Shown piece by piece: positions 1-15,888 of a DNA stretch of 20,000 nt. The position numbers and the translations under genes were made by a program. The notes under the pieces are model-generated. The model saw only the letters and a program-made list of their open reading frames with translations. It was not told where the DNA came from and did not search any database. Each line of letters starts with the position of its first letter. The stretch's first letter is position 1. Where the stretch lies: the IMG/VR virus record IMGVR_UViG_3300047561_001544; one strand, given 5' to 3'. This DNA comes from an uncultured virus (IMG/VR IMGVR_UViG_3300047561_001544) (lineage: Duplodnaviria; Heunggongvirae; Uroviricota; Caudoviricetes).

Positions 1-1
1 A

Positions 2-478
2 ATAAAATCCTATGAGCAAGCTTTTCTTGAAACTATAGAAAATATTTTAAGAGTTCAGTGGTTTTTAAAATCAAACAATATTTCATATAAAATGTTAAAT
101 GGATGGGATATATTAACTTATGGTGAAATAAAACCTTTAAGAGAATTTGGTATTAATGAATATGGAATTGCAGATGAAATTAATATTAATGGAAGTCAAT
201 ATTTGGATGATAACTATGAAAGTATTAATAATAATTTAATTATTGATAAATTTAAATGGGTACAACCTTTATGGGATTTAATTGATTGGAATAACTACTG
301 GACATATAATGATGATAAAATTAAATATGGTGGCATTATACAATGGGTAAAAAGAAATTTGCCAAAAGAAATTTGGCATCCGCATGATGGAGATTTTCAT
401 CCACATCAAAAAGCTCATGAATTATTTGCAGATTATGCGATAAAGAACATTTTTCGGGAAATCTATGAAGAAAATTAA
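2..478 (+). CDS. 5'-truncated SGNH/GDSL-hydrolase-like phage protein
   Basis: The frame of ORF 92..478 is open back to position 2 (IKSYEQAFLETIENILRVQWFLKSNNISYKM...), so the gene starts upstream of the window. C-terminal DGDFHPHQKAHELFA resembles the SGNH block V DxxHP motif. Confidence 0.55.
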   Translation: MKSYEQAFLETIENILRVQWFLKSNNISYKMLNGWDILTYGEIKPLREFGINEYGIADEININGSQYLDDNYESINNNLIIDKFKWVQPLWDLIDWNNYWTYNDDKIKYGGIIQWVKRNLPKEIWHPHDGDFHPHQKAHELFADYAIKNIFREIYEEN

Positions 479-591
479 ATTTATTCTATATAATATATAT
501 TATTTCTTTACAGATTATAAAAAATTTAAGATAAATAGAAAAATAAATAAAATGCAAAAAAAATATCCAAATATATACCCTCTTTACTAAT

Positions 592-1584
592 ATGAAAATA
601 TTGCCTTCTAAATCTATTTATTATGATAATGTTAATTTAGTTGCACAGCCGACCGAAGTAAAATCTCGTAAAGATATTCCACAAGAGTTAGAGAGAATTA
701 TGGTTAGTCCAATGCAGTCAATTGTTGGGCCAATTTTTGCGAAAAAAGCCCTTGAACTCGGGCTTTCGGTTTGTTTGCATCGTTTTAATTCAACAATTCA
801 AGAACGGTTAAAGTTAATTAATGATGTATTTATGAATATGACCGACCCAAATATGGCGAAAAGAGTTTGGGTTTCAGTAGGATTAAAAGATTTAGAATAT
901 ATAGAAGCTATTATACATCAAGGAGTAGAGAATATTATTATTGATGTGGCTAATGGATATATGTCTGACGTAATTGAATTTGCGTCACAGATCTTTCATA
1001 AATCGGACAAACGAATTAAAAAAATTATGCTAGGTAATATTCATAGCGATACTATTCTTACGGATTATCAGTACCTTTCTATTTATTTAGGTATTCCAAT
1101 TTATTTTCGTTGCGGGATTGCTAGCGGTAGTGTTTGTAATACTAGCGGAATGACTGGATACAATCGCGGCCAAATTACGGAAATTAATGAATGTGCAACT
1201 TGGGTTGATTCTACTAATAGTAATTTAATTTTAGTTGCTGATGGAGGAATTGCTAATCCAGCTTGTGCAGCTAAGGCTTTTGGCGCAGGAGCGGAATATG
1301 TAATGATGGGCGGTTATTTTGCACATGCTAAAGAGTCTCAGCACGTTATTGATGAGATTTATAAATTTTGGGGTGGTGCTTCAGAATTTCAACAAATAAT
1401 GTCTAAAGGAACGGCTGAACGTCATAGTGAAGGCAAAGAACAGGATATTAATAAAGATAATCTTTTAAACTTGGATAAACTAGTTTCTGATTTATGGGGC
1501 GGTATTAGTAGCGCAGTTAGTTATAGCGGACATAAAACTCTCACAAAATTTATTGGAAATGCGGTGTTTGAGATTAAAGAATAA
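592..1584 (+). CDS. guaC: GMP reductase / IMP dehydrogenase family TIM-barrel enzyme, no CBS domains
   Basis: Motifs YYDNVNLV, SPM, LHRF, IDVANG, catalytic-loop GIASGSVCNT, ADGGI, AKAFGAGAEYVMMGG, SEG and GGISSAVSYSG. Length of 330 aa is typical of GMPR. Confidence 0.85.
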   Translation: MKILPSKSIYYDNVNLVAQPTEVKSRKDIPQELERIMVSPMQSIVGPIFAKKALELGLSVCLHRFNSTIQERLKLINDVFMNMTDPNMAKRVWVSVGLKDLEYIEAIIHQGVENIIIDVANGYMSDVIEFASQIFHKSDKRIKKIMLGNIHSDTILTDYQYLSIYLGIPIYFRCGIASGSVCNTSGMTGYNRGQITEINECATWVDSTNSNLILVADGGIANPACAAKAFGAGAEYVMMGGYFAHAKESQHVIDEIYKFWGGASEFQQIMSKGTAERHSEGKEQDINKDNLLNLDKLVSDLWGGISSAVSYSGHKTLTKFIGNAVFEIKE

Positions 1585-1590
1585 AAATAT

Positions 1591-1677
1591 GGAAGCGTAC
1601 TCAAGCGGTTTACGAGAGAAATTTACTAAATTTCCGAGGTCTAAAAGCCTCCGTGGGTTCGAATCCCACCGCTTCCT
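1591..1677 (+). tRNA. class II tRNA-Ser, anticodon ACT (ACU), no encoded CCA
   Basis: Acceptor GGAAGCG/CGCTTCC; D arm CTC..GG..GAG; anticodon stem GAAAT/ATTTC with loop TT-ACT-AA; long variable arm GAGG..CCTC; T arm GTGGG-TTCGAAT-CCCAC. Confidence 0.88.
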
Positions 1678-1683
1678 TTTTTA

Positions 1684-1711
1684 TTGATATTTCTTAAAAA
1701 CTTTCTATAAT
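1684..1711 (+). promoter_or_regulatory. sigma70-like promoter
   Basis: TTGATA-N16-TATAAT, 8 nt before ATG 1720. Confidence 0.55.
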
Positions 1712-1719
1712 AAGTAAAA

Positions 1720-1914
1720 ATGGAGACTTACTACATAAAATTAACCTTTAAAGGTCGTTATTTTGATATAGGAATAACCCCTGTTGAGTACGATGGTTAT
1801 GATATTGAAGTACGTGTAAAAGAAAAATTATCTGGAGATGATTTTCGATCTTTACGACAATATCTTGAAAATGAAGGATATTTTGAAGCCGCACGAAATT
1901 TTTTAAAAATATAA
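1720..1914 (+). CDS. hypothetical protein, 64 aa
   Basis: ATG ORF directly behind a promoter, with protein-like composition. Confidence 0.7.
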   Translation: METYYIKLTFKGRYFDIGITPVEYDGYDIEVRVKEKLSGDDFRSLRQYLENEGYFEAARNFLKI

Positions 1915-1925
1915 AAATACTAAAT

Positions 1926-2204
1926 ATGAATATAGAACCCTTAGAAGTCAAACTGGTAAAGTCTTCAAAAATTGAAGATGGGGATATTGTAATTATAAAA
2001 ATAGATTCAGAAGATAAGAAAAATTTTGATACAGATAATATCAAAAGTTTGTATAGTCAGATAAAAAAAATGTTAGGAGATAAAAATCTTTCTATATATT
2101 TCTTTCCAAAGAATCTTGATATAGACTTTATAAAAACTCAAGTAGAGAATATTGAATCAAATAAAGATAAAATTAATAATGAAATCGAAACTCCAAATAA
2201 TTAA
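1926..2204 (+). CDS. hypothetical protein, 92 aa
   Basis: ATG ORF packed 11 nt after the previous gene. Confidence 0.7.
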   Translation: MNIEPLEVKLVKSSKIEDGDIVIIKIDSEDKKNFDTDNIKSLYSQIKKMLGDKNLSIYFFPKNLDIDFIKTQVENIESNKDKINNEIETPNN

Positions 2205-2418
2205 AAATATAATTTTACTTTTAATAGTAAGTATAAATAATATTTACAGTCAAGAGAATAAACCATTTGCTTTTATATCCTCCGTTGGTACTTCTGTAAG
2301 ACAGTCGGAATTACAAGCTTTTAACGTAGCCTATATGAATAATCTAAGAGTAGTATCTGTGAGTAATTCGAAACAGGGTAATATCTGGACATCTATAGTA
2401 AAAGTTGTTTCAAAATAA
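2179..2418 (+). CDS. small exported protein with N-terminal signal peptide
   Basis: Likely start at ATG 2179: MKSKLQIIKNIILLLIVSINNIYS-QENKP has a basic N-region, hydrophobic core and possible cleavage site. Confidence 0.6.
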   Translation: MKSKLQIIKNIILLLIVSINNIYSQENKPFAFISSVGTSVRQSELQAFNVAYMNNLRVVSVSNSKQGNIWTSIVKVVSK

Positions 2419-2421
2419 TTT

Positions 2422-2571
2422 ATGAAAATTAAAGAATTAATTAATTTACTTGAAGAAGAAAACCCCAAAGCCAAAGTAATTTTTGAATTTGAGGGCGAAG
2501 AATTGATTGTTGATGAATGGGATATTGAATCCAGCGATAATCTTGTAGTTGTTAAATTGGTAGAAAAATAG
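2422..2571 (+). CDS. small acidic protein, 49 aa (MKIKELINLLEEENPKAKVIFEFEGEELIVDEWDIESSDNLVVVKLVEK); not in the ORF track
   Basis: Translated by hand from ATG 2422 to TAG 2569-2571. Fills the gap exactly and has the common phage 'M(T/K)xKELIxxL..P.A.V' N-terminus. Confidence 0.7.
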   Translation: MKIKELINLLEEENPKAKVIFEFEGEELIVDEWDIESSDNLVVVKLVEK

Positions 2572-2572
2572 A

Positions 2573-2601
2573 TTGACGCGTTCGTAAAAATTCATTAATA
2601 T
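2573..2601 (+). promoter_or_regulatory. sigma70-like promoter
   Basis: TTGACG-N17-TAATAT, 8 nt before ATG 2610. Confidence 0.65.
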
Positions 2602-2609
2602 TCACGTAT

Positions 2610-2915
2610 ATGAAAAAACGTGGTAGAAAAGCTGGAAGCGGCAGTTTCATGCAAGTATCGCTTGAAGAACTCAATCGTGTACTAAAACCCAACGCGCGCG
2701 TTGTTATCTGGAGTCGTTACGGCCAGATGCTCGGAATTGAGGGCAAGAAGATCGAGGCAAACTACGATACTCTCGTGGCGGCAGTTAAGGGTGGCACTAC
2801 AGAAGTTGAAATCGAAACTTTTGGCGCGCAACCCGTAGCCAAACAAGAAGTTAAAAAACAGGACAATACGGAGGAACTCATCCCCAAGCCTTCGGTTTCT
2901 TTTGAGGTGTTTTAA
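2610..2915 (+). CDS. hypothetical protein with basic AT-hook-like N-terminus, possibly DNA-binding
   Basis: Starts MKKRGRKAGSGSF, has its own promoter, and uses GC-richer codons than its neighbours. Confidence 0.7.
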   Translation: MKKRGRKAGSGSFMQVSLEELNRVLKPNARVVIWSRYGQMLGIEGKKIEANYDTLVAAVKGGTTEVEIETFGAQPVAKQEVKKQDNTEELIPKPSVSFEVF

Positions 2916-2916
2916 A

Positions 2917-3117
2917 ATGAAAACTTTTATTAAAATCTTCTGGCCGTTTACCGTTTCGATTTGTATTATGATAATTGGCGCATTTATAATGGGCATTCCA
3001 ATTTCCATTCTATGGAATACTTTTTGCCCTAAAGTGTTCGGCGTAACTAGAATTGACTGGGTAGATGGGGCAATGCTTTATCTTTTGTGCAATCTTCTTT
3101 TTAAAAAGATCGATTGA
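2917..3117 (+). CDS. small membrane protein
   Basis: Likely start at ATG 2917. Two hydrophobic segments separated by LWN..P.VFG. Confidence 0.7.
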   Translation: MKTFIKIFWPFTVSICIMIIGAFIMGIPISILWNTFCPKVFGVTRIDWVDGAMLYLLCNLLFKKID

Positions 3118-3142
3118 CACGCCAATAAAAATCTATTAATAT
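3114..3142 (+). promoter_or_regulatory. sigma70-like promoter
   Basis: TTGACA-N17-TAATAT, 6 nt before ATG 3149. Confidence 0.7.
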
Positions 3143-3148
3143 TCAAAC

Positions 3149-3418
3149 ATGATCACTAAAAAAGACTATACAAAAGATGGTAAACATCCCGAAGATGTTA
3201 TCTATAAGGAAATGGAGTTTCGTAGCGAGGTTAATAAAATGCTCGTGCAGAGATTCGAGCAACTTGTAGTTGATTTGCGTCTTACTGCTGATGGCGCTGA
3301 TTATCTTATGAATTATTTTGATAATTATAGTTTCTTGTATGATAACGAGGAGATACTTGAATTTGATGAGTTTTTGTCTGAAAATTATGGTATTGAATAT
3401 GGGGATATACATAAATGA
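3149..3418 (+). CDS. acidic hypothetical protein, 89 aa
   Basis: ORF behind a promoter, ending where the next gene begins. Confidence 0.7.
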   Translation: MITKKDYTKDGKHPEDVIYKEMEFRSEVNKMLVQRFEQLVVDLRLTADGADYLMNYFDNYSFLYDNEEILEFDEFLSENYGIEYGDIHK

Positions 3419-3663
3419 CTGATGAACTTACAATTAAAGTAAAGGCAAGTTCATGGGCGCGTGTTACGCGCGAACGTGATGAAGCGCGCGCTGAGTGTTT
3501 AGAACAGTGCCGTTTGCTTGCTATGAGTGCGGATCGTGAGGCTAAACTACTTGGAGAGCTTGAGCGCGCAAAAAAATCCCTAGATCATTCTACATGGGTT
3601 CATGGCGCTTGTAATCCGCCGTCTCCAGATTGGCAGAAGTCTAGAGATTCACAAATGTATTGA
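3415..3663 (+). CDS. coiled-coil hypothetical protein with an ERDEAR motif
   Basis: Helical RERDEARAE...ELERAKK segment in a tightly packed ORF. Confidence 0.65.
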   Translation: MTDELTIKVKASSWARVTRERDEARAECLEQCRLLAMSADREAKLLGELERAKKSLDHSTWVHGACNPPSPDWQKSRDSQMY

Positions 3664-3688
3664 CACATTCTCCCAAATGGTATAGACT
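3660..3688 (+). promoter_or_regulatory. sigma70-like promoter
   Basis: TTGACA-N17-TAGACT, 8 nt before ATG 3697. Confidence 0.65.
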
Positions 3689-3696
3689 TGGGAATA

Positions 3697-4098
3697 ATGA
3701 AAATCCGAATCAATAACATCGGTGCAGAGAAAGTTGCATACATTGGTAAGCCTCCCAAAGATGCTGATCTGGAGATCTCCATTGTCAAGTATCATCCAAA
3801 CAGATACTATGGAGAGCTAGAGCCTTATATACAAGGTGGTTGGATAGATTGTGGCAGCTACATTGAGTCCCAAGTTCTAGGGACTATTCACAAAAATTGC
3901 TTCGATAGTCCAGAGACAAATTATGTCATAGCATCTTTAAAGTACAACAAGAAGGAAGATTACACTGAGTTGACTTCAGTTGCTGATAGGTTACTATACA
4001 TTGAGAATGAAGACAAAGAGAACTTCTGGGAGGTTTATAGGTTAGCTGATAAAGAGATGATGAAAAAATTTAGTAATGAACAAGAAGATTCCATATGA
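3697..4098 (+). CDS. hypothetical protein
   Basis: The TTG at 3688 overlaps the -10 box, so ATG 3697 (MKIRINNIGAEK) is preferred. Confidence 0.7.
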   Translation: MKIRINNIGAEKVAYIGKPPKDADLEISIVKYHPNRYYGELEPYIQGGWIDCGSYIESQVLGTIHKNCFDSPETNYVIASLKYNKKEDYTELTSVADRLLYIENEDKENFWEVYRLADKEMMKKFSNEQEDSI

Positions 4099-4567
4099 TT
4101 TAAGTTCAGAAGAAATTGATGAACTAAGAAAAAGAAAAAAAGAAATAAGTGATTTTGTTTTTGAACAATTTAAATTAAATAAAATGAAAAGAGAAATAAA
4201 ATTTAGAGTCTGGGACAAAAAGAATAAAGGCTTTTGTCATAAGGTTCATGAAAATTTCGATTTGATTTATGCTGATGACATATGGTATATTCTAGGTGGA
4301 AAAGCTCTAGATAATAATTTTGTAATGCAGGAATACATTGGACTAAAAGATAAGAATGGCAAAGAGATCTATGAGGGTGACCTTATTAATTTCTTTTGTG
4401 ACTATACTATGGATCTTGGTGATAGGGATGTAATTGAATACAAAAATCAAGAAGTTTATTATGATGAGAGACTTGCTGGATTCTATTTTGGTAAAGATGG
4501 ATTCCAAATGCTTGATAAAATCATGCCTGAGACTTTAGAGGTTGTTGGTAGCAATAATGAATTTTAA
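4076..4567 (+). CDS. YopX family protein; domain begins at Met 4184
   Basis: MKREIKFRVWDK, MQEYIGLKDKNGKEIYEGD and LEVVGS are YopX signature motifs. Confidence 0.88.
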   Translation: MNKKIPYDLSSEEIDELRKRKKEISDFVFEQFKLNKMKREIKFRVWDKKNKGFCHKVHENFDLIYADDIWYILGGKALDNNFVMQEYIGLKDKNGKEIYEGDLINFFCDYTMDLGDRDVIEYKNQEVYYDERLAGFYFGKDGFQMLDKIMPETLEVVGSNNEF

Positions 4568-4838
4568 AGACATTCATAATAGACAGATAAACAAGGGCGA
4601 TAAGGTTCTGGTTTATATTCAGAAATATGCGCGCGCGCACGTTGGCGAGAATGTTTATGAAGTCGATGCGTCGAAACCATATCCAGTAGCCGATGTGCCA
4701 ATGGCGCGTGGGCGCGTAGAGTGGGACAAAGATTTTAATAGTTTTGTTGTGCGTTATGATTGGACTTGTGACTCTTGGAAACATAAATCCGCCTCTCAAA
4801 TGGAGGGCGGTAATTATGCTTACGAAATTATTGATTAA
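4557..4838 (+). CDS. hypothetical protein with a YopX-like 'KD..NRQINKGDKV' start
   Basis: ATG 4557 overlaps the end of the YopX gene. Confidence 0.65.
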   Translation: MNFKDIHNRQINKGDKVLVYIQKYARAHVGENVYEVDASKPYPVADVPMARGRVEWDKDFNSFVVRYDWTCDSWKHKSASQMEGGNYAYEIID

Positions 4839-4845
4839 ATTTTAA

Positions 4846-5085
4846 ATGCGATACAGAATTAAACAAGTAGAAAAGTACGGAGAAAAATACTTCTATCCTC
4901 AGTATAAGAAGTTTCTTTTTTGGAGAAGGTTTGTCTGGTGGGGGGGAGAAGATGGATATACACCTAAAACAGTTTGGTACAAATATAAGGAAGAAGCTCT
5001 TGAGGCAATTGAAAAAGATAAAATAGAGCGAAGAGAGGAATCTCTTGAAGTTCCTAAAAAAACTATATATCATTACGTAGATTAA
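4846..5085 (+). CDS. hypothetical phage protein, 79 aa
   Basis: MRYRIKQ...FYPQYKKFLFW...EEALEAIE is a pattern common in small phage proteins. Confidence 0.7.
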   Translation: MRYRIKQVEKYGEKYFYPQYKKFLFWRRFVWWGGEDGYTPKTVWYKYKEEALEAIEKDKIERREESLEVPKKTIYHYVD

Positions 5086-5104
5086 TAATATAAAAATTAA
5101 CAAT

Positions 5105-5326
5105 ATGAAAATTGAAATTACAGACGATAGCGTAGATGAAATCATTTTGAATGGATTAAAAGAACAGAGGGATTTTATGTCTTCAGATTTAAAAAAATTA
5201 AAAAAGATTAAAAATCCAAAGCGTTACGTTCAAGAGGATATTGTATATCATACCAACTGCTTGCAGGCTTTAAAGACGGTAATCGCGCACTATAGTCCAA
5301 GCAGCAAGGTTCTGGGGGATTATTAA
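5105..5326 (+). CDS. hypothetical protein, 73 aa
   Basis: Packed ORF abutting the next start codon. Confidence 0.7.
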   Translation: MKIEITDDSVDEIILNGLKEQRDFMSSDLKKLKKIKNPKRYVQEDIVYHTNCLQALKTVIAHYSPSSKVLGDY

Positions 5327-5587
5327 ATGAAATATAAATTTGTAGAAACACAGGGCTGCCTATCTTCTGGCTTCACTATTAATGATGAAGAAATACAGGA
5401 TGTGCCCAGAGAAAAACAAAAAGAAATTGTAGATTATCTTTGCGAACAGATCAAAGACGGTTTCGCTAATGGAAGCATCTCCGTGCTAGATATCGTAAAG
5501 ACATTCGAAGTGCATTACAATGGAATAGAAAAAAATCGTTGCGAGACATGCGGCGACAGAGTATCTTGGGAGATTTGGGAGCTATGA
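5327..5587 (+). CDS. hypothetical protein with C-terminal CxxC (CETCGD)
   Basis: Packed ORF with an ATGA overlap to the next gene. Confidence 0.7.
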   Translation: MKYKFVETQGCLSSGFTINDEEIQDVPREKQKEIVDYLCEQIKDGFANGSISVLDIVKTFEVHYNGIEKNRCETCGDRVSWEIWEL

Positions 5588-5940
5588 AAGAAGATATTAA
5601 TGAATTAAAAACGCTTTTAAAAGTCATGGAGCAAGCTAAACACGCCACCTTGCAGCGCGAAGGTTTTGCCGTGGAAGAGCGTGATAAGGCGAGAGAGCTT
5701 TTCCAAACCGCGATGGAACTTGCCAAAAAATATAAAGACGAGCGAGACGATGCAAGGCTTGAATGGGATCATTGTCTGAATCTAGCAAATAAACTTTTAA
5801 AAGAGCGTGACGAATACAAAATCGGACATGATCGTTACGAAAAATTGCGCCGATTAAATTTGCAACAAATTAAAGAGTTGTATTTAAGAAATTTGCGAAC
5901 TGCAGAACATTTTGATACGCTTGTAGATAAGTTAAATTGA
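5584..5940 (+). CDS. coiled-coil protein with repeated ERD(K/D/E)A motifs
   Basis: ATG 5584 lies in an ATGA overlap. Contains EERDKAR, DERDDAR and KERDEYK. Confidence 0.7.
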   Translation: MKEDINELKTLLKVMEQAKHATLQREGFAVEERDKARELFQTAMELAKKYKDERDDARLEWDHCLNLANKLLKERDEYKIGHDRYEKLRRLNLQQIKELYLRNLRTAEHFDTLVDKLN

Positions 5941-6335
5941 ATAAAGTAATTACAGTTGATTTTGACGAAACCTTAGCTGTTAATTCATCAACAGCTTGGG
6001 GAGGAACTATGCTTGTTCCTGTAGAGCGTATTGTCAAATTTATTAAATCAAAAATTGATTCTGGATTTCATGTTTATGTTGTTACCTTCCGTAATTGGAA
6101 TAATAAAAAAGAAATTATTGACTTTTGCAAAGCATATGATATTAAAATTAAAGATGTTATTTGCACAGAAGGAAAGACTAAAACAGAATTTATAAAACGG
6201 CTAAATAGTTCTTTGCATATTGATGATCATGTTGAAACTTGCACACTATTAACTATGGCTGGGATTGAAGTTCTGCTTGTGGATTGGGATCAAGAAAAAA
6301 ATAATTTAATGGCACAACATTTTAATAAAATATGA
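5937..6335 (+). CDS. HAD-superfamily hydrolase/phosphatase
   Basis: Motif I VDFDETL, motif II VVTFR, motif III Lys (GKTK), motif IV HIDD. Confidence 0.8.
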   Translation: MNKVITVDFDETLAVNSSTAWGGTMLVPVERIVKFIKSKIDSGFHVYVVTFRNWNNKKEIIDFCKAYDIKIKDVICTEGKTKTEFIKRLNSSLHIDDHVETCTLLTMAGIEVLLVDWDQEKNNLMAQHFNKI

Positions 6336-6514
6336 TAACTGATAAACAAAGATTAGATTGGTTACAACAAGGGCATGAGATTATAGCTCTTATATCTAAA
6401 GATGGAAAAAGCACTGTGTTCACAAGCAATTTTGTAGAACAAGATTGGGCCGAGTTTGAAAGCGTTAGAGACGCTATTGATTTTGGAATTAATTACAATA
6501 AAAAATTGCTATGA
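6332..6514 (+). CDS. small phage protein, 60 aa
   Basis: TDKQRLDWL...SVRDAID pattern with ATGA overlaps on both sides. Confidence 0.7.
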   Translation: MITDKQRLDWLQQGHEIIALISKDGKSTVFTSNFVEQDWAEFESVRDAIDFGINYNKKLL

Positions 6515-6675
6515 ATAACGATATACAAGCCGAGATTGAACGCCTACACGATCTACTCAAAACACAAGAAGAATCTATGAGCGTTCTTCTTTCTAATTAT
6601 GAGCATTTAAAAGCGCGCGTTGTGGAGATCGAACAATTCTTGCACAGAAAAACAAAAACTTCTCGTTGTTGTTAA
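6511..6675 (+). CDS. small coiled-coil protein, 54 aa (MNNDIQAEIERLHDLLK...SRCC); not in the ORF track
   Basis: Translated by hand. ATGA overlap upstream and TAATG overlap downstream. Confidence 0.65.
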   Translation: MNNDIQAEIERLHDLLKTQEESMSVLLSNYEHLKARVVEIEQFLHRKTKTSRCC

Positions 6676-6839
6676 TGAATTATTACTCTGAAACCATATT
6701 CAATATCGTCTGGAATCTAGAGAATATTCTTAAAAAAGATCCTGACTATACTATTAGTCCAAATGACGTAGAGATGCTTGACAAGGCGTCAAAAATAATA
6801 CATAATGTTATTAAGCAATTAAAAGAAAGAAATTCATGA
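6675..6839 (+). CDS. small protein, 54 aa (MNYYSETIFNIVWNLENILK...ERNS); not in the ORF track
   Basis: Translated by hand. TAATG and ATGA couplings at its two ends. Confidence 0.6.
   Translation: MNYYSETIFNIVWNLENILKKDPDYTISPNDVEMLDKASKIIHNVIKQLKERNS
6778..6806 (+). promoter_or_regulatory. possible internal sigma70-like promoter
   Basis: TTGACA-N17-CATAAT, about 30 nt before ATG 6836. Confidence 0.5.
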
Positions 6840-7270
6840 AAGAAGAACTCGAAATCCAACTAGTAAGTAAGTATCCAGACATTCTGCGCGATTATAAGGG
6901 CGACAAAATGGTAACCTGTATGCATTGGGGTATGGAATGTCAAGAGGGTTGGTATGACCTTCTTGATAGACTAATGAATAAATTAAACTTTATTTCTAAA
7001 AGACTGGGTATTCAAGTCATAGCCAATCAAATCAAGGAAAAGTTTGGTACTCTTCGTTTCTATTATACAGTTATTATTAAAGATGAGAAGGCTGTTGACG
7101 ATACAACTTTTGATATTGTTAGCGATATTGTTTCGTCGGCAGAGAGGCAATCAGAAAATACTTGTGAGTCGTGCGGCAAGCATGGTGAGCTATGCACAAA
7201 CGGTGGGTGGCTTAAAACGTGCTGCCCAGAGTGTGCGACTGAAAAAGGATATACTCCTACTGATGCATAG
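6836..7270 (+). CDS. conserved phage protein of the KEKFGxLRFY type with a C-terminal Zn-ribbon
   Basis: ECQEGWYDLL, QIKEKFGTLRFY, CESCG and GWLKTCCPEC. Confidence 0.8.
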   Translation: MKEELEIQLVSKYPDILRDYKGDKMVTCMHWGMECQEGWYDLLDRLMNKLNFISKRLGIQVIANQIKEKFGTLRFYYTVIIKDEKAVDDTTFDIVSDIVSSAERQSENTCESCGKHGELCTNGGWLKTCCPECATEKGYTPTDA

Positions 7271-7345
7271 ATTTTTTAATTAGCCACAATAAAAAATTAC
7301 TAAAATATATTGAATATAACTTTATTTTATAATAATATATAATAT

Positions 7346-8203
7346 ATGTATATACTAATTTTAGGTAAAGGGTTTATTGGAACCAGTATTTCCAAATATT
7401 TTAAACGTAATAATATTGAGCATAAGATTTACTCTCAATCTGAATTAGATTATACTAATACAAATATTTTTGAAGAGTATCTTAAAAATAATAATCAAAA
7501 TATTAGATGGGTTATTAATTGCTCAGGTTATACTGGAGTACCAAACGTAGACGCATGTGAAGACACCAAAGAGCTTTGCTATGCTTACAATGTTATTTAT
7601 CCTATGCAGGTTGTTAGAACTTGCCATAATCTAGATGTACCAATAATACATATTGGTTCTGGATGTATTTATTCTGGCTACGATAAAGATTATAATGAAA
7701 ATGACACGCCAAATTTTGGTATTTACTCTAACGAGTCTTCATACTACTCAAAGTGCAAACATATTTTTGAGACGTTTGCTAAAGATTTTAATTGTTATAT
7801 TTTTAGAATTAGGATTCCTTTTACAGAAACTCTAACAAGAAAAAATTATTTTAGTAAAATACTGGCGTATGACTCTCTTATTAACGAACTTAATTCAGTA
7901 ACCTCTGTTAATGATTTTAATAATTTTATAGTGAGGTTTATGGCAGTTAAACCAAAATATGGTATTTATAATGTTGTTAATCCACAACCTATTAAAGCAG
8001 AAGATGTTGTTAGTTTGCTTGAACTTCATGGTTTAAAAAATCCAAACTGGAAATTCATAAAGCTTAAAGACCTTAATACAAAGGCTAACAGATCGAATTG
8101 CGTATTATCAACAGATAAAATAAATAATCTTGGTTTGCAACTTCCTAATACAAACGACTCATTAGTTAGGGATATGGTTGCTTTAGCACGTTCACAGGAT
8201 TAG
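7346..8203 (+). CDS. RmlD-like NDP-sugar reductase (3,5-epimerase/4-reductase-type SDR)
   Basis: LGKGFIG Rossmann motif, INCSGYTGVPNVDACE, SGCIY, YSKCK (YxxxK), RIRIP, GIYNVVNP and RSNCVL. Confidence 0.85.
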   Translation: MYILILGKGFIGTSISKYFKRNNIEHKIYSQSELDYTNTNIFEEYLKNNNQNIRWVINCSGYTGVPNVDACEDTKELCYAYNVIYPMQVVRTCHNLDVPIIHIGSGCIYSGYDKDYNENDTPNFGIYSNESSYYSKCKHIFETFAKDFNCYIFRIRIPFTETLTRKNYFSKILAYDSLINELNSVTSVNDFNNFIVRFMAVKPKYGIYNVVNPQPIKAEDVVSLLELHGLKNPNWKFIKLKDLNTKANRSNCVLSTDKINNLGLQLPNTNDSLVRDMVALARSQD

Positions 8204-9825: not shown

Positions 9826-9896
9826 GCCTGGTTAGTTTAATGGTAAAACGGTTGATTTGTAATCATCTGACGCCAGTTCGATTCTGGCACTGGGCT
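9826..9896 (+). tRNA. tRNA-Thr(TGT), no encoded CCA
   Basis: Acceptor GCCTGGT/ACTGGGC; D arm GTTT/AAAC; anticodon loop TT-TGT-AA; T arm GCCAG-TTCGATT-CTGGC. Confidence 0.9.
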
Positions 9897-9914
9897 CATT
9901 CTATTTAATAAACT

Positions 9915-10206: not shown

Positions 10207-10280
<74 letters not shown>

Positions 10281-10291
10281 TTTTTATTAAC

Positions 10292-10834
10292 ATGGCACAT
10301 TTAGATCAACGTATATTTTGTGAATCAATTAAAACCAAATTGTCACATTACTTTTCTAATAAAAAAGTATTAGACATTGGATCGCTCGATATTAATGGTA
10401 ATAATCGATTTTTATTTCAAAATTGTGATTATACAGGTGTTGATATTGGTCCAGGTTTAAATGTTGATGTAGTTTCATTAGCACATGAATTTGATATGCC
10501 GAATAATACTTATGATGTCATTATATCTACAGAAGCTTTTGAACATGATATGTATTATGATTTAAGTATTAAAAATATTATTAAACTCTTAAAAAATAAA
10601 GGATTATTTTTATTTACCTGTGCTACGACTGGTCGTCCAGAACATGGAACAATTAATTTTAGACAGGAAGACTGCCCTCTAACGAAGGAGGACGAAAACT
10701 GGTCTCAATATTATAAAAATTTAACAAAAGAAGATTTTTTAAAAATTAAAAACTTTGAAGATTCTTTTGATACTTATAATTTTTATACTAATAATAATAT
10801 GTGTGACTTATACTTTTATGGAATCAAAAAATAA
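10292..10834 (+). CDS. class I SAM-dependent methyltransferase
   Basis: Start moved to ATG 10292 because the track start lies inside tRNA-Pro. Motifs VLDIGS, YTGVDI, YDVIISTEAFEH and LLKNKGLF. Confidence 0.85.
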   Translation: MAHLDQRIFCESIKTKLSHYFSNKKVLDIGSLDINGNNRFLFQNCDYTGVDIGPGLNVDVVSLAHEFDMPNNTYDVIISTEAFEHDMYYDLSIKNIIKLLKNKGLFLFTCATTGRPEHGTINFRQEDCPLTKEDENWSQYYKNLTKEDFLKIKNFEDSFDTYNFYTNNNMCDLYFYGIKK

Positions 10835-11402
10835 TTTTACAAATTCAATAATCGAAGAATTTTCAGAATTTATTTCTGATGAAGAATCTAATAAATTGAT
10901 AGAATTGGCAGAAATAGATCTAAAAAAAATGACAGTTTTAGGAGAAAGTTCCCCTAATGATTACAGAATTGCTGAAGGAACTTGGTTATCAAACGACCAA
11001 GAACCAATGAAAATGATCAGATATAGAATCTCCCAACTTCTGGATATTAATCCAGAAAATATGGAAGCGACCCATATTGTGAAATATAATGTTGGAGGTG
11101 AGTATAAAGTTCATCATGATTTTTTTCATACAAATACTGATTATTCAGAGTCAGCATTGAAGCGCGGTGGTCAAAGAGTTTATACAGCATTAATTTATTT
11201 AAATGATAATTTTACAGGAGGGGAAACAGAATTTCCAAAACTTAATATAACAGTAAAACCAGAAAAAAATAAACTGGTAATTTGGAAAAATTTAAAAGAT
11301 AATGATGAATTAAATATGGATAGTTTACACGCTGGACTTCCCGTGAAATTAGGATGTAAATATATTTTAATAATTTGGATTAGGAAAAATAAATTTATCT
11401 AA
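10818..11402 (+). CDS. prolyl 4-hydroxylase-like 2OG-Fe(II) oxygenase
   Basis: Likely start at ATG 10818. EFISDEE..LI, E..HIVKY..GGEYKVHHD (HxD), GGQRVYTALIYLND..GGETEFP and SLHAGLPVKLGCKY match the P4H alpha-subunit catalytic pattern. Confidence 0.88.
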   Translation: MESKNNFTNSIIEEFSEFISDEESNKLIELAEIDLKKMTVLGESSPNDYRIAEGTWLSNDQEPMKMIRYRISQLLDINPENMEATHIVKYNVGGEYKVHHDFFHTNTDYSESALKRGGQRVYTALIYLNDNFTGGETEFPKLNITVKPEKNKLVIWKNLKDNDELNMDSLHAGLPVKLGCKYILIIWIRKNKFI

Positions 11403-11408
11403 TTTTTA

Positions 11409-12047
11409 TCATATATTTAATAATTGAATATCTTGATTAATTAAATTTAAATCACGAGAATCCTTTAAACAAGCGTAATGTATAAAAAAACTTTCTATTT
11501 TTTTATTTGTAGAGTGATCAATACAATTATTCCATTTCCATCCGATATCAAAAGTAGGAATTTCAAATTCTGAAATATTATAATTTATATAAGTTTGTTC
11601 GGCATAATTATCTACTAAATAATCTTTTAATAACAATAAGTTTTTATGCAAATGTGAAAAAACAATAACTCCAGTATTAAAATATTTTTTAACGACATTA
11701 TTATTTTCTTTTATTAAAATATTTTGTAATAGTCTTTCTGGAAAATACTGCCCCTCTTCTAAAATTCCTACCTTTTCTTCGGGTACATATTCAAAAATAT
11801 TGGGAGCTATATTTAAATTAATTAAAATATCTATATCAATATAACAAATTCTTTTATATTTTTTTAAAAATTTATAAATTGCAAATTTATTATACTGTTT
11901 AATTTTAAAATTTAATTCTTCGTTTAAAATAATAAAATCAATATTATATTTTTTTGCGTACTCCTTCATAAAAGGAACGGTTAATTCCGATACTTTTTTA
12001 AAATTATCCCCTATGCATAAAGTAATAATAGCGTAATCTGAATTCAT
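11409..12047 (-). CDS. GT-A glycosyltransferase, GT8-like
   Basis: YKRICYIDIDILI (DxD), YFNTGVIVF, EQTYINY, KWN and FIHYA. Confidence 0.8.
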   Translation of the reverse strand: MNSDYAIITLCIGDNFKKVSELTVPFMKEYAKKYNIDFIILNEELNFKIKQYNKFAIYKFLKKYKRICYIDIDILINLNIAPNIFEYVPEEKVGILEEGQYFPERLLQNILIKENNNVVKKYFNTGVIVFSHLHKNLLLLKDYLVDNYAEQTYINYNISEFEIPTFDIGWKWNNCIDHSTNKKIESFFIHYACLKDSRDLNLINQDIQLLNI

Positions 12048-12076
12048 AATTTTAAGTCTAAGTGCATAATTGATAT

Positions 12077-13141
12077 TTATATTAATAAATTATGATAATA
12101 TGAAAAAACTGATTCAATATCTTCATATTTATTAGAATTTTTTAAAAATAAATTAAGTTTAGGTATTTTATATGTTTCGAATAGAAAATTTTGAATTCTT
12201 TTAATATCTAAAGATACTAATTTTTTATTTGAAAAATATTCATTTATTTTTTTAAGATTACCTTCGTCTGTTAAATTAAATTTTGAATGATTTATATACC
12301 CTGGCAATGATTTTATATTAAAAATTTCTGAATCGTCAAAACAAAAGCCTATTTTATTTAATAAATAGACTTCCAACATATAAGTATATACAATTAATTT
12401 CTCATTTTTAATAAAATTATGGCAGGCGCGTATTTTCGGAGTTAGTCCTTGCCAGTTGTCCATATTGAAAAATAACATATCAAAAATATATTGCTGATTA
12501 CATGCTTCAAATAAATTCATTAATTCGGGGTGATAACTAATAAAATAATTTACCCATAAATTTTGTTCTGGGACTAGATTATAAGAACTTAAATTTAAAA
12601 AATTAAAATTAACTATTTTAAGTAAGTCCTCTTTTTGGCCAAAATAAAATTTATCATTCCAAAAAAATACGGCTGGAACGTAATGAGATAGTGCTGCAGG
12701 GTGTTGCGCTAAACCAATTTTATAATTTAATCCATAAGCCCTATCTAAATTAATAAACTTACTCGGATTTGTTTCTAATAATTTTGTAACATTTTTAAAA
12801 TTAAATCCGTCAACGTGTGCAGATTTATCGGTTCGAAGCTTTAAAACAAAAGAGTCATCTGGACATAATTTTAAACCTGAGTGCGTGGTAATAAACTGTT
12901 TTAAATAGTTTCCTTTTATTTTTAAATTCAAAGTTGATTCGTGTTCTTTATTTTCAATAACAATAATTTTATATTTTTTTAATTCAGATAAAATTTCTGG
13001 AAATAAAAATAAATCGTTTTCCCAAGTCGATAGTATTATATTTTCAATAAGACCCTGCTCTTTAGCTTTTCCTAAAAAATTAATATTATCTTTTAAAACT
13101 GTAGGATTTCTAATTTTTCCACATATAATTGCCCATTTCAT
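12077..13141 (-). CDS. WavE-like polysaccharide synthesis protein
   Basis: IICG, IILSTWE, NYLKQFITTHSGL, VLKLRTD, DKFYFGQKEDL and VPEQ resemble WavE-family motifs. Confidence 0.65.
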   Translation of the reverse strand: MKWAIICGKIRNPTVLKDNINFLGKAKEQGLIENIILSTWENDLFLFPEILSELKKYKIIVIENKEHESTLNLKIKGNYLKQFITTHSGLKLCPDDSFVLKLRTDKSAHVDGFNFKNVTKLLETNPSKFINLDRAYGLNYKIGLAQHPAALSHYVPAVFFWNDKFYFGQKEDLLKIVNFNFLNLSSYNLVPEQNLWVNYFISYHPELMNLFEACNQQYIFDMLFFNMDNWQGLTPKIRACHNFIKNEKLIVYTYMLEVYLLNKIGFCFDDSEIFNIKSLPGYINHSKFNLTDEGNLKKINEYFSNKKLVSLDIKRIQNFLFETYKIPKLNLFLKNSNKYEDIESVFSYYHNLLI

Positions 13142-13926
13142 TATTTATTTATATAATATAGATACGCTTTGTCTTTAATTAATTTAAATTTTTTATTTTC
13201 AATGAATGCACCATCTTTTAATAAAGGCGTACGAGTTTGTTCAACAGACCAATGTTTAAAATTTTCATTATATAATTCATGAATGAATTTTCTATTAAAA
13301 AAATTATTATAATCGATACTATATAGTTTAGTTGTTTGATTATTATGATAAAAAATATGATTAGTATTATTTTTTACTAAATACCTATCATTTATCTTTA
13401 ATATTTTATAAATACTATTTGTATATACTCCAGGACCAGTCATAATATGAATATCATTTATTCTATTATCTATTGGAATAGGTTGTCTTTTCATCCAAAT
13501 ATTTTTAGTGATCTCCTCTATTATTTTTTCTAAAATGATATGTTTTTTATTAAAAATCAGTACCCATTGCGCAAAATAAGGAGAATCTTCTTTACTGATT
13601 AAAGCGTCTAAATCAGTATCAATTAGTTTGTCCAGATTTTGCTCACAAAAAGTATCAATATCGATATATACACCACCGTAATAATATAATACTAAATATC
13701 TCCAAAAGTCTGTTTTCGCAACCATTATATTTAATTTATTGAAAGCTTCCCAAATTTCTTTTGGATAATTTGTTTTAACAAAATCGTGAATATCATCATC
13801 ATTAAATAATAGATGTGCATAATTTGGATTATAATATTTAATTTTATCTATTCTAGTCTTAACAGAATTGACCACCTTTGTATAGTCCTTCTGCCTCCAT
13901 GTTTGAAATATTTGTTTGGGTATCAT
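13141..13926 (-). CDS. GT32 / OCH1-like glycosyltransferase (DXD sugar-binding family)
   Basis: MIPKQIFQTW, KTDFWRYLVLYYYGGVYIDID and TGPGVYT. Confidence 0.88.
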   Translation of the reverse strand: MIPKQIFQTWRQKDYTKVVNSVKTRIDKIKYYNPNYAHLLFNDDDIHDFVKTNYPKEIWEAFNKLNIMVAKTDFWRYLVLYYYGGVYIDIDTFCEQNLDKLIDTDLDALISKEDSPYFAQWVLIFNKKHIILEKIIEEITKNIWMKRQPIPIDNRINDIHIMTGPGVYTNSIYKILKINDRYLVKNNTNHIFYHNNQTTKLYSIDYNNFFNRKFIHELYNENFKHWSVEQTRTPLLKDGAFIENKKFKLIKDKAYLYYINK

Positions 13927-13950
13927 ACACTTTTTAATTAAAATATATAT

Positions 13951-13970
13951 TTATATTACATGTAATATAA
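13951..13970. promoter_or_regulatory. 20-bp perfect palindrome between divergent genes
   Basis: TTATATTACATGTAATATAA equals its own reverse complement and lies in the 61-bp gap between starts 13926(-) and 13988(+). Confidence 0.7.
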
Positions 13971-13987
13971 TTATTCTACAGTAATTT

Positions 13988-14965
13988 ATGATAGATATTC
14001 TTTTTGAAGATACTAATTTTGTCCCAGTCAATACTAAAAAAATTGTAAGATATGGGGAGGTGCTTAGTCCACCAGTTATAGCTTATGACTATATTAATAG
14101 TACTAATAATACTAAAAATATAGACGTTATAGCTCTAGACTCTTCCGAGAGTAATTGGAAAATAGAATTATTAAAACAATCTTTTTTAGAATATAATCAA
14201 AATAATTTGAATTTAAATTTAACAATATTAAATACTAAAAATATTTCTAAACAGTTGGCCTCCTTAAAAAATTATTTATATAATTCAAATTTTAATAGTG
14301 AATATGTATTATTAATAGATTCTAATTTTTTATTTACAGATTGTTTAAATAAACTAACTTTTAATAAAGAGTTTTTTGGTTCAAAACCTTTCTGTCATAT
14401 AAGTACAGAGGGTTCTTTTTGGAACAATACGATTGATTTAGTTTTATTTTTAATTAAAACTGCGGAATTTTATAAAAAAAATTTAAACGCTAACATAAAT
14501 ATAGATAAATTAAATTTTTATAAGGTATATGGTTTCCCGATGTATTTTAAAACAGATTTTTTAAAAAATATAATAAGTAGGTGGGAGGGCTTAACAAATT
14601 ATTTTTATTTTAATGACCATATTGATAATAATTTACATAAAAATGAATTAGCATGCCTATACGCACTTTCTTTTTGTCTTATCGAGCGTAACTTAATTAG
14701 TGATGAGACGCTAGACATTTCCTATATTACCTCTGAGCATTCAAATTTTAATATTAATTATTTATTATATAATCATAGAAATAAGTTAATATCTAACGCA
14801 ACAAAAGTTAAAATTTTTGATTCGAAGACTTATAAACCTTGGAGTTTAATAAATTATACTGTAGATAGTATGGATTATACATCAATTAAAATTTTTATTG
14901 AAGTATTTAATTATTTAATTTTCAAAAAGACGGGTATTGAGAAAGCGACTATAATTCCGGTGTAA
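13988..14965 (+). CDS. divergent paralog of the downstream HPAT/SERGT-like glycosyltransferase
   Basis: Collinear blocks shared with 14977..15888: NWKIELLKQSFLEY vs NWQTNVLYESFLEY; YVLLIDSNFLF vs YIILLDPDFIF; FPMYF..FLKNIISRW vs CPYII..LLSKIIDRW; LYALSFCLIE vs MYAFSFALAE; IFDSKTYK vs VFGKRSYK; C-terminal IIPV vs IIPY. Confidence 0.7.
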   Translation: MIDILFEDTNFVPVNTKKIVRYGEVLSPPVIAYDYINSTNNTKNIDVIALDSSESNWKIELLKQSFLEYNQNNLNLNLTILNTKNISKQLASLKNYLYNSNFNSEYVLLIDSNFLFTDCLNKLTFNKEFFGSKPFCHISTEGSFWNNTIDLVLFLIKTAEFYKKNLNANINIDKLNFYKVYGFPMYFKTDFLKNIISRWEGLTNYFYFNDHIDNNLHKNELACLYALSFCLIERNLISDETLDISYITSEHSNFNINYLLYNHRNKLISNATKVKIFDSKTYKPWSLINYTVDSMDYTSIKIFIEVFNYLIFKKTGIEKATIIPV

Positions 14966-14976
14966 TAATATCAAAT

Positions 14977-15888
14977 ATGCACAAGTATACAGTAATTGTT
15001 ACAAAAAACAATAGTGATTATATAAATTGGCAAACAAATGTTTTATATGAATCTTTTTTAGAATACCATAAGAACGATAAAAATTTTAAATTTATAGCGC
15101 TAGTTTCAAAAGATCAAAAATATTTAGAAAGTCCAAATTATCCATATATTTATTTTAATCATATTAATGTATTAAATAATGATAATTATATAGTTTATAA
15201 TAGAATTCTTAGTTTGAGGGAATATTTAAGAAGTATTGAATTAAGTGAGAATCGTTATATAATTTTATTAGATCCAGATTTTATTTTTTTAAAAAAATTT
15301 GATTTAGATATCAGTACAACAACCGCACAATTTTGTAGTTATTTAATAAATCATGAAGTTCTTAATTTTTTTCAAAAAACGTACGAGTCCGATGTAAAAG
15401 ATTTTTATTGCCCAGTAGCCTGTCCGTACATTATAAATGAAGTCCTTTTGTCAAAAATAATTGATAGATGGTTAGAATTAGCAGTTGATTTCAGAACAAA
15501 TAATATTAAAGATAGTCCGTTATACCAAAATTGGATATGTGAAATGTATGCTTTTTCATTTGCGTTAGCTGAAAATAAAATCCAAGTAGATATTAAAAAT
15601 TTTTGCGAATCTCCTCCAGGAGGTGATTATATATCAAATGAAAATTTAATTTTTTATCATTATTGCTATGACATTAGACATAATAAAACTAATCAACTAG
15701 TATTCGGGAAAAGATCGTATAAATTTGGACATTATATAGATCTTAATGGTCTAGAATATAATATTGGAAAAGACTCTTATAATTTCATTTCAAATTTTAA
15801 TTATTTCACTAAAAAATTAGGAGCTAAAGAGCAAGTTGAAGAAAAGTTTAATAAAGCATTTCTAACGCCACAAATTATTCCATATTAA
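14977..15888 (+). CDS. hydroxyproline O-arabinosyltransferase / peptidyl-serine galactosyltransferase-like (GT95/GT96) glycosyltransferase
   Basis: YINWQ, DNYIVYNR, LLDPDFIF, WICEMYAFSFALA, FYHYCY and FGKRSY occur in the order of the plant HPAT/SERGT1 motifs as recalled (WQ, YxxxN(R/K)P, (E/D)xD, WxxEMYxY, HY, FDKR). Confidence 0.72.
   Translation: MHKYTVIVTKNNSDYINWQTNVLYESFLEYHKNDKNFKFIALVSKDQKYLESPNYPYIYFNHINVLNNDNYIVYNRILSLREYLRSIELSENRYIILLDPDFIFLKKFDLDISTTTAQFCSYLINHEVLNFFQKTYESDVKDFYCPVACPYIINEVLLSKIIDRWLELAVDFRTNNIKDSPLYQNWICEMYAFSFALAENKIQVDIKNFCESPPGGDYISNENLIFYHYCYDIRHNKTNQLVFGKRSYKFGHYIDLNGLEYNIGKDSYNFISNFNYFTKKLGAKEQVEEKFNKAFLTPQIIPY

Follow-up and report, generated by a model that had tools for sequence, protein, structure and literature searches.

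A phage gene predicted to encode tRNA-Ser with an ACU anticodon belongs to a widespread family of such genes in phages and Patescibacteria

In the review literature, tRNA genes with ANN anticodons are termed 'prohibited' in bacteria and are said to be likewise missing from phage tRNAs (Ehrlich et al., 2021, PMC8007984), and seven two-codon-box ANN anticodons are described as universally absent, the cases in GtRNAdb being only sporadic (Raval et al., 2026, bioRxiv 10.64898/2026.05.15.725136). This has raised the question of what selects against such anticodons. Natural tRNAs described as having an unmodified A34 include Mycoplasma tRNA-Thr(AGU) and, in some Firmicutes, Leu(AAG) and Thr(AGU) (Ehrlich et al., 2021; Raval et al., 2026). 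The ACU anticodon itself has been engineered in E. coli in an M. jannaschii Tyr or an E. coli Ser backbone (PMC11066159; Raval et al., 2026). In these two studies, an orthogonal ACU tRNA reassigned AGU at 9.4%, with AGC and AGA below detection and AGG at 0.36%, and its cDNA carried nothing but T at position 34, with no sign of inosine (PMC11066159), and an over-expressed Ser-tRNA(ACU) improved growth with a low likelihood of mistranslation (Raval et al., 2026). A search of the literature for a natural tRNA-Ser(ACU) returned no description, and the main text of Morgado and Vicente (2019) makes no mention of one.

We analyzed a 20,000-nucleotide stretch of DNA (the window) from an uncultured virus of the Caudoviricetes (IMG/VR record IMGVR_UViG_3300047561_001544) that carries a gene predicted to encode such a tRNA. 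The four-box A34 tRNAs of Mycoplasma and Firmicutes resemble it in encoding A34 outside Arg(ACG) in AT-rich genomes, but reading all four codons is harmless there, whereas ACU belongs to a box divided between AGY(Ser) and AGR(Arg). The engineered tRNAs share its anticodon and are functional, undeaminated, nearly exclusive to AGU and not costly, though their backbones differ. Bacterial and phage tRNA-Ser(GCU) are like the window tRNA in their class II build, GGA start, 16-18-nt variable region and loop of the form U33-N-C-U-A37-A38. The window tRNA has A34 rather than G34, so it would be expected to read AGU only instead of AGU and AGC, and it differs from phage tRNA-Ser(GCU) in its U73 and its C10-U11-C12 D stem.

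ARAGORN calls the gene as a class II tRNA of serine type at 1591-1677 on the plus strand, with the anticodon ACT (A34-C35-U36) at gene position 35 (window 1625-1627) within the loop T-T-A-C-T-A-A (1623-1629). The Rfam tRNA model RF00005 matches the same span over its whole length (model positions 1-71) with 46.1 bits against a gathering score of 29 (E 3.7e-7). All seven acceptor pairs form between GGAAGCG (1591-1597) and CGCTTCC (1670-1676). The D arm TACTCAAGCGGTTTACGAGA (1598-1617) has a 3-bp stem of CTC (1600-1602) with GAG (1614-1616), which pairs C10-U11-C12 with G23-A24-G25, and the anticodon stem consists of 5 bp between GAAAT (1618-1622) and ATTTC (1630-1634). A variable region of 18 nt (1635-1652), with GAGGT/GCCTC as its 5-bp stem, is followed by a T arm (1653-1669) of the form GTGGG/TTCGAAT/CCCAC. 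The discriminator is T (U73, position 1677) in place of the usual G73, and no CCA is encoded after it. A minimum free energy fold recovers the acceptor, anticodon, variable and T helices at -28.4 kcal/mol (z -2.83), a value equalled by 2 of 200 shuffles. The clean cloverleaf with G1-G2-A3, a long variable arm, ACT and T73 that the first-pass annotation had described is thus borne out by ARAGORN, RF00005 and the fold. We predict with high confidence that the gene specifies a functional tRNA and that its ACU anticodon is genuine.

The rarity of ANN anticodons in the literature is the sole argument that this might be a dead gene or a GCT anticodon altered by assembly or sequencing error. An identical 87-nt gene is present in another, independent IMG/VR contig (57 kb, CheckV estimate 33% complete; loci L002, L014, L039 and L388) with diverged flanks, where the adjoining GMP reductase has 89% protein identity to that of the window; the relative thus has ACT, not GCT. 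More diverged members of the same sub-lineage also retain ACT while their stems change compensatingly, and the intact acceptor and other stems of the window gene argue in the same direction. One such member (G015, 147 kb) has the tRNA order Asn-Arg-Leu-Ser(act) ... Thr-Pro, as in the window's relative. We therefore regard a dead gene or error as extremely improbable; judged by the copies in its relatives, the ACU gene does not result from an error, nor from a mutation private to this phage. A contig from sequencing run X1 also spans positions 934-1663 with 0 differences, though this run may be the source sample of the window. Only two runs, both of a single freshwater-metagenome sample that is perhaps the source, contain at least half of the sampled words from 600-2600, and no RNA run was listed as containing the stretch.

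To place the gene in a wider context, we scanned IMG/VR with a pattern consisting of the ACU loop followed by class II spacing and a T loop, and ran ARAGORN on each of at least 119 loci. Among the matches listed, 112 of the 119 loci contain a class II tRNA-Ser(act), amounting to at least 97 distinct sequences; no class II Ser(act) was called in L028, L043, L046, L073, L098, L109 and L114. Across these 97 listed viral sequences, 1918 of 1940 cells of the acceptor, D, anticodon and T stems are paired (0.989, compared to 0.708 when 3' partners are shuffled), in a set that was prefiltered for at least six of seven acceptor pairs and in which the search pattern itself dictates two of the T-stem pairs. 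At least two types of Watson-Crick pair occur at 18 of the 20 stem positions. The acceptor starts with GGA in 83 of the 97, and the variable region is most often 18 nt long both among these (52/97) and among the genomic sequences listed from a scan of prokaryotes described below (49/78). The loop T-T-A-C-T-A-A is common to the distinct Ser-type tRNAs among the matches listed, 97 of them viral and 77 genomic. The window tRNA fits this family in its class II build and in a loop, U32-U33-A34-C35-U36-A37-A38, that is kept in diverged relatives. Going by this pattern of pairing and conservation, the Ser(ACU) gene is real and under selection.

Several clusters around these loci contain further unusual tRNA genes. 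A tRNA with a CTA anticodon (amber-reading type, which ARAGORN names Pyl) lies about 140 nt after the Ser(act) of L006 (3202-3274), in a 214-kb record whose cluster of 15 tRNAs includes Leu(aag). L007 (2972-3041) and L009 (2978-3047) contain a 70-nt GCT tRNA with a shortened D arm and without a long variable arm, and the same clusters encode tRNA-Ser(aga), another A34 serine tRNA (L007 4802-4879; L009 1140-1217). An A34 tRNA-Thr(agt) directly follows Ser(act) in a 75-kb viral contig (L091 216-290). In the complete 233-kb phage record G004, ARAGORN reports a tRNA with a four-base anticodon, gaga (L144 9012-9086), and the tRNA-Ile(tat) of G015 (L440 1032-1125) is unusual for an Ile tRNA in its length of 94 nt, with an encoded CCA and a long extra arm.

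We next scanned with position 34 left open, using the pattern CGGTTTNCTAAACCG and running ARAGORN on at least 120 loci. The 120 matches listed comprise 59 Ser(gct), 17 Ser(act), 19 Arg(cct) and 11 Arg(tct) genes, along with 14 loci with no tRNA. ACU thus accounts for 17 of the 76 AGY-type Ser tRNAs with the CGGTTTNCTAAACCG stem among these matches, and this one anticodon stem occurs with G34 as well as with A34. When position 34 was masked, the nearest neighbour of 11 of the 13 distinct ACU sequences among these matches was another ACU sequence, compared to a mean of 2.7 after label shuffling; a count of 11 was never reached in 2000 shuffles. This clustering of ACU with ACU indicates that A34 has been inherited through divergence rather than arising sporadically. 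The two ACU sequences nearest to a GCU gene may represent separate origins.

A scan of prokaryotes with the ACU pattern (one genome per species, at least 120 loci) extended the family beyond phages. Ser(act) was called in 84 of the 120 genome loci listed, and 35 of the 57 such loci with titles listed carry the names of Patescibacteria lineages (Saccharibacteria, Paceibacterota, Microgenomates and others), record titles that we take to denote CPR lineages. Contigs of 0.7 and 1.17 Mb are among these loci. A Ser(gct) gene lies within 150 nt of Ser(act) in 7 of the 84 loci listed. The Patescibacteria tRNAs share the loop and class II build of the window tRNA; they differ from it in being chromosomal, in having G73 and often a D arm of the form TCGCATAGTGG, and in sometimes adjoining Ser(gct) or Ser(tga). 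Some MAGs labelled Planctomycetes, Verrucomicrobia or Flavobacteriales contain copies of Ser(act) that are of the phage type.

Cultured phages also encode the tRNA. The first eight Ser genes examined from cultured phages were all tga or gct, with no act among them. A G73-CCA query (L025) led to Ser(act) genes, called by ARAGORN, in Salmonella phage Munch (MK268344), Klebsiella phage fENko-Kae01 (OR228459) and Erwinia phage Hallingskeid (PQ464590), all of which were deposited merely as 'tRNA-Ser'. Like the window gene, they encode class II tRNAs with ACT, and they belong to large AT-rich phages; unlike it, they fall outside the U73/A73 lineage, have another D arm and show no DNA similarity to the window tRNA at E 1e-5. 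The earlier description of ACU as a normally absent anticodon therefore agrees with the reviews but does not hold for IMG/VR phages, Patescibacteria and three jumbo phages. By its structure and loop, the window tRNA belongs to a natural tRNA-Ser(ACU) family that is widespread and for which we found no published description.

Within this family, the window tRNA departs from the majority in features that bear on serine identity. Of the 97 distinct viral Ser(ACU) sequences listed, 88 have G as the discriminator, 6 have T and 3 have A; the 77 distinct genomic ones listed all have G. A set of 46 distinct sequences of phage Ser(GCU) contains 43 with G, 3 with A and none with T. G73 and C11-G24 are identity elements of E. 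coli tRNA-Ser, as are G1-C72, G2-C71 and A3-U70. The window tRNA has the three acceptor pairs and a variable arm of serine length (18 nt with a 5-bp stem), but T at 1677 in place of G73 and U11-A24 in place of C11-G24. Pair 11-24 is C-G in 88 and T-A in 8 of the 97 listed viral sequences.

A scan of viral sequences with a 22-nt D-arm motif that is neutral with respect to the anticodon, GTACTCAAGNGGNNNACGAGAG (lineage mark GTACTCAAGYGG...ACGAGAG), returned 18 loci: nine Ser(act), one Ser(tga) with G73 and eight Tyr(gta) with A73. The motif outside the window's lineage is thus that of phage tRNA-Tyr(GUA), and nine of the ten Ser-type loci have ACT. The nine Ser(act) loci (T73 in eight, A73 in one) represent six distinct sequences, five with T and one with A, and never have G73. 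In the acceptor, anticodon and variable stems, members of this sub-lineage diverge through compensating substitutions, which argues that both ACT and a non-G discriminator are maintained. In a sister phage (G032, 177 kb), the Ser(tga) gene adjoining Ser(act) also has U73, followed by an encoded CCA, and U73 thus appears to be a trait of the Ser tRNAs of the window's lineage in general. This Ser(tga) (L442 1609-1696) additionally has a G1-U72 wobble pair. The first-pass annotation was right to single out T in place of the usual G, which our comparison identifies as a trait of a small phage lineage rather than a quirk of a single gene (88 of the 97 viral sequences listed have G). Taken together, U73 and a Tyr-type D arm are, on the family alignment, a lineage-specific change of the serine identity set.

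A host group with U73 in its own tRNA-Ser was not found in samples centred on Bacteroidota, in Pelagibacterales or in samples centred on Verrucomicrobiota. G73 is present in 14 of 14 Pelagibacterales Ser tRNAs and in all but L444 among 36 distinct Bacteroidota-centred and 25 distinct Verrucomicrobiota-centred Ser tRNAs. L444, present in two cellular samples, is a Ser(gga) that has U73 followed by an encoded CCA; it lies on a small contig (C120) of a Verrucomicrobiales MAG (G038). The same MAG has a contig with a phage-type Ser(act), and L444 may be binned phage DNA.

Since G73 and C11-G24 are missing from the window tRNA, we infer serine charging from its variable arm, its acceptor stem and the AGT/AGC exchanges described below, and serine identity is therefore less secure for this tRNA than for the G73 majority. 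A sub-lineage charged ambiguously or with an amino acid other than serine, with AGU recoded, would agree with the lack of G73 in six of six distinct ACT sequences and with a D-arm motif common to eight phage tRNA-Tyr genes. Recognition by TyrRS and LeuRS relies on A73, and that by TyrRS on U35 as well; neither base is present in the window tRNA, which shares only the D-arm motif with phage tRNA-Tyr and is otherwise unlike bacterial-type tRNA-Tyr in that its anticodon is ACU and not GUA, its discriminator U73 and not A73, and its variable region 18 nt rather than 13-15 nt long. The G1-G2-A3 acceptor start and a variable region of 18 nt match the Ser family, the Ser(UGA) of the sister phage shares U73 followed by CCA, and AGT aligns with AGC nine times between orthologues, as expected of synonymous Ser codons. 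We consider non-serine charging very unlikely on these grounds.

The orthologue comparison also bears on a further suggestion of the first-pass annotation, that AGN decoding might be altered. In 22 orthologous ORF pairs (2630 aligned codons, with a few antisense ORFs included) from the window and its relative, AGA stands opposite CGN in 10 cases and opposite AGG and AGC in one each, in addition to the nine alignments of AGT with AGC. AGA thus exchanges with CGN Arg codons and AGT with AGC, and altered AGN decoding is not supported by these swaps.

Codon usage suggests a role in decoding AGU. A count over 5408 codons in 33 greedily chosen ORFs of the window gives AGT 92, TCT 84, TCA 59, AGC 31, TCC 29 and TCG 21, such that AGT is the commonest Ser codon and outnumbers AGC 92 to 31. 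We compared 14 ACU phage records (20-kb coding stretches) with 14 GCU records (14-20 kb). The ACU records have a GC content of 0.31-0.40, compared to a median of 0.42 for GCU records (Mann-Whitney p about 0.001-0.002), and an AGT/AGY ratio of 0.63-0.85 with a median of 0.73, compared to a GCU median of 0.545 (Mann-Whitney p 0.0014), where the 14 ACU records are not phylogenetically independent and several have near-identical tRNAs. The ACU phages show no AGT bias beyond their general bias for U-ending codons (AGT/AGY minus AAT/AAY, p 0.30), and a cruder test on the GC of short non-tRNA flanks found no difference between ACU and GCU loci (p 0.89).

The tRNA sets of these phages have a similar orientation. 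The tRNAs encoded by the window's relative (G001) and the complete 233-kb record G004 all serve codons ending in A or U, with Arg(tct), Leu(taa) and Ile(tat) among them, and neither set contains Ser(gct). Three tRNA genes are called by ARAGORN in the window and matched by the Rfam tRNA model: in addition to Ser(act), these are tRNA-Thr(UGU) at 9826-9897 and tRNA-Pro(UGG) at 10207-10280, both on the plus strand. Thr(UGU) and Pro(UGG) are part of a phage set reading A/U-ending codons. No tRNA-like Ser(GCU) turned up in a pattern search of five ACU records with a completeness of 95% or more, the matches being non-tRNA sequences about as numerous as in a reversed control; atypical loops would be missed by this pattern. 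Within the scope of these searches, ACU is the only AGY reader encoded by the ACU phages examined.

Whether A34 would stay unmodified determines which codons the tRNA could read. Deamination by a host TadA would yield ICU, reading AGU, AGC and weakly AGA. The substrate context of TadA is U33-A34-C35-G36, as in tRNA-Arg(ACG). The window loop has U36 instead of G36 and presumably shares U33-A34-C35 and A37-A38 with tRNA-Arg(ACG), a likeness that would favour deamination. A TadA homologue is present in 88% of bacteria with a non-ACG A34 tRNA. In one E. coli study, YAMAT-seq data are interpreted as showing Phe-tRNA(AAA) (pheV-AAA) converted to IAA, and an engineered His AUG tRNA is cited as inosine-modified (Raval et al., 2026); these two cases are what keep host deamination in play. 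The engineered ACU tRNA argues against it, having only T at 34 in cDNA and leaving AGC and AGA unread (PMC11066159). ICU would moreover place serine at AGA, a frequent Arg codon of the window (60 in 5408 codons). A search for TadA in four ACU phage records (G001-G004) found none, only deaminase-fold proteins of the dCMP-deaminase type (TadA model NF008113 at 20 bits, compared to a cut-off of 150). We therefore consider deamination of A34 rather unlikely. An unmodified A34 tuned to AGT appears to be the best fit among the three explanations offered at first, given the AGT-rich phages and the engineered tRNA (PMC11066159).

Another of those explanations was escape from anticodon nucleases. In a broader form, a host anticodon nuclease or other tRNA-targeting defence would cut or deplete host tRNA-Ser(GCU) during infection, and the phage tRNA would take its place while itself going unrecognised. 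Such escape is plausible in general, as ApeA cuts Ser tRNAs among others, and ACU being the sole AGY reader encoded in the phages examined would be in keeping with it. Our literature search found no nuclease specific for tRNA-Ser(GCU), the ApeA example being Ser(GGA). Ser(ACU) is also present in Patescibacteria chromosomes, with 7 of the 84 loci listed lying within 150 nt of Ser(gct), and these chromosomal copies do not represent a phage-defence setting. Decoding explains the tie to AT-rich, AGT-rich genomes more simply. Escape as the main benefit is consequently unlikely in our assessment.

The surroundings of the gene are those of an AT-rich phage (GC 0.23-0.42 in 2-kb bins). The window encodes phage-like proteins, including a YopX protein, a RuvB-like AAA ATPase, UvdE, an SNase homologue and several glycosyltransferases, together with many small ORFs without a family assignment. 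Searches against known phages returned little: a blastn search with the tRNA as query gave no match at E 1e-5 among 50,697 phage records, positions 1-8000 matched phage records only in a 59-nt YopX fragment, and tblastn with two window proteins identified no relative above 30% identity and no close cultured phage. An ORF at 10223-10834 overlaps tRNA-Pro, and its 5' end is probably not a gene. The region 10755-15888, with a GC content of 23-26%, contains a 2OG-Fe(II) oxygenase (10755-11402), three minus-strand glycosyltransferases (11409-13926) and a protein of the hydroxyproline O-arabinosyltransferase (HPAT) family (14977-15888). The combination of oxygenase and HPAT suggests a plant-like path of protein hydroxylation and arabinosylation in the phage.

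Immediately upstream of tRNA-Ser(ACU) on the same strand lies a gene of the IMP dehydrogenase/GMP reductase family (592-1584; Pfam accession PF00478, E 3.7e-29). Its stop codon ends only 6 nt before the tRNA, which makes co-transcription of the two genes likely. A consensus search of 400-2400 found no promoter-like site between them. The best match within that interval, a consensus match only, is TTGATA-16-TATAAT (1684-1711, plus strand, 11/12 positions), directly 3' of the tRNA and upstream of an ORF that starts at 1720.

These observations lead us to propose the following course of events. The tRNA would probably be transcribed together with the upstream GMP-reductase gene, its ends would be processed by RNase P and a 3' nuclease, and CCA would be added by a host enzyme. 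Host SerRS would then charge it with serine by way of the long variable arm and the G1-C72/G2-C71/A3-U70 acceptor stem. A34 would most likely stay unmodified, and ACU would read AGU through three Watson-Crick pairs and hardly AGC, AGA or AGG. The phage would in this way have a dedicated decoder for its most used Ser codon, which the host's single tRNA-Ser(GCU) would read only by G:U wobble. We consider this mechanism as a whole, a serylated AGU-specific decoder with unmodified A34 in an AGT-rich phage, to be somewhat probable. More tentatively, and at a little under even confidence, Ser tRNAs with unmodified A34 in a split box may be a selected, widespread AGU-only tool of AT-rich phages and Patescibacteria, from which the window's lineage has dropped G73 and the canonical Ser D stem.

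The existence of hundreds of natural, structurally conserved Ser(ACU) genes suggests that an A34 two-codon-box anticodon considered 'universally absent' is allowed and kept. The anticodon kept in nature is the same one that proved harmless or beneficial in E. coli (PMC11066159; Raval et al., 2026). With these genes deposited only as 'tRNA-Ser', analyses of phage codon supply miss the possible reading of a single codon. The cultured Salmonella, Klebsiella and Erwinia jumbo phages provide natural material for studying A34 modification, the strictness of AGU reading and the avoidance of AGA/AGG misreading. The U73 lineage likewise offers a natural test of the need of SerRS for the discriminator base. 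If our reading is true, host SerRS would recognise a U73 tRNA by its variable arm and acceptor stem only, or U73 may allow the tRNA to evade a host factor.
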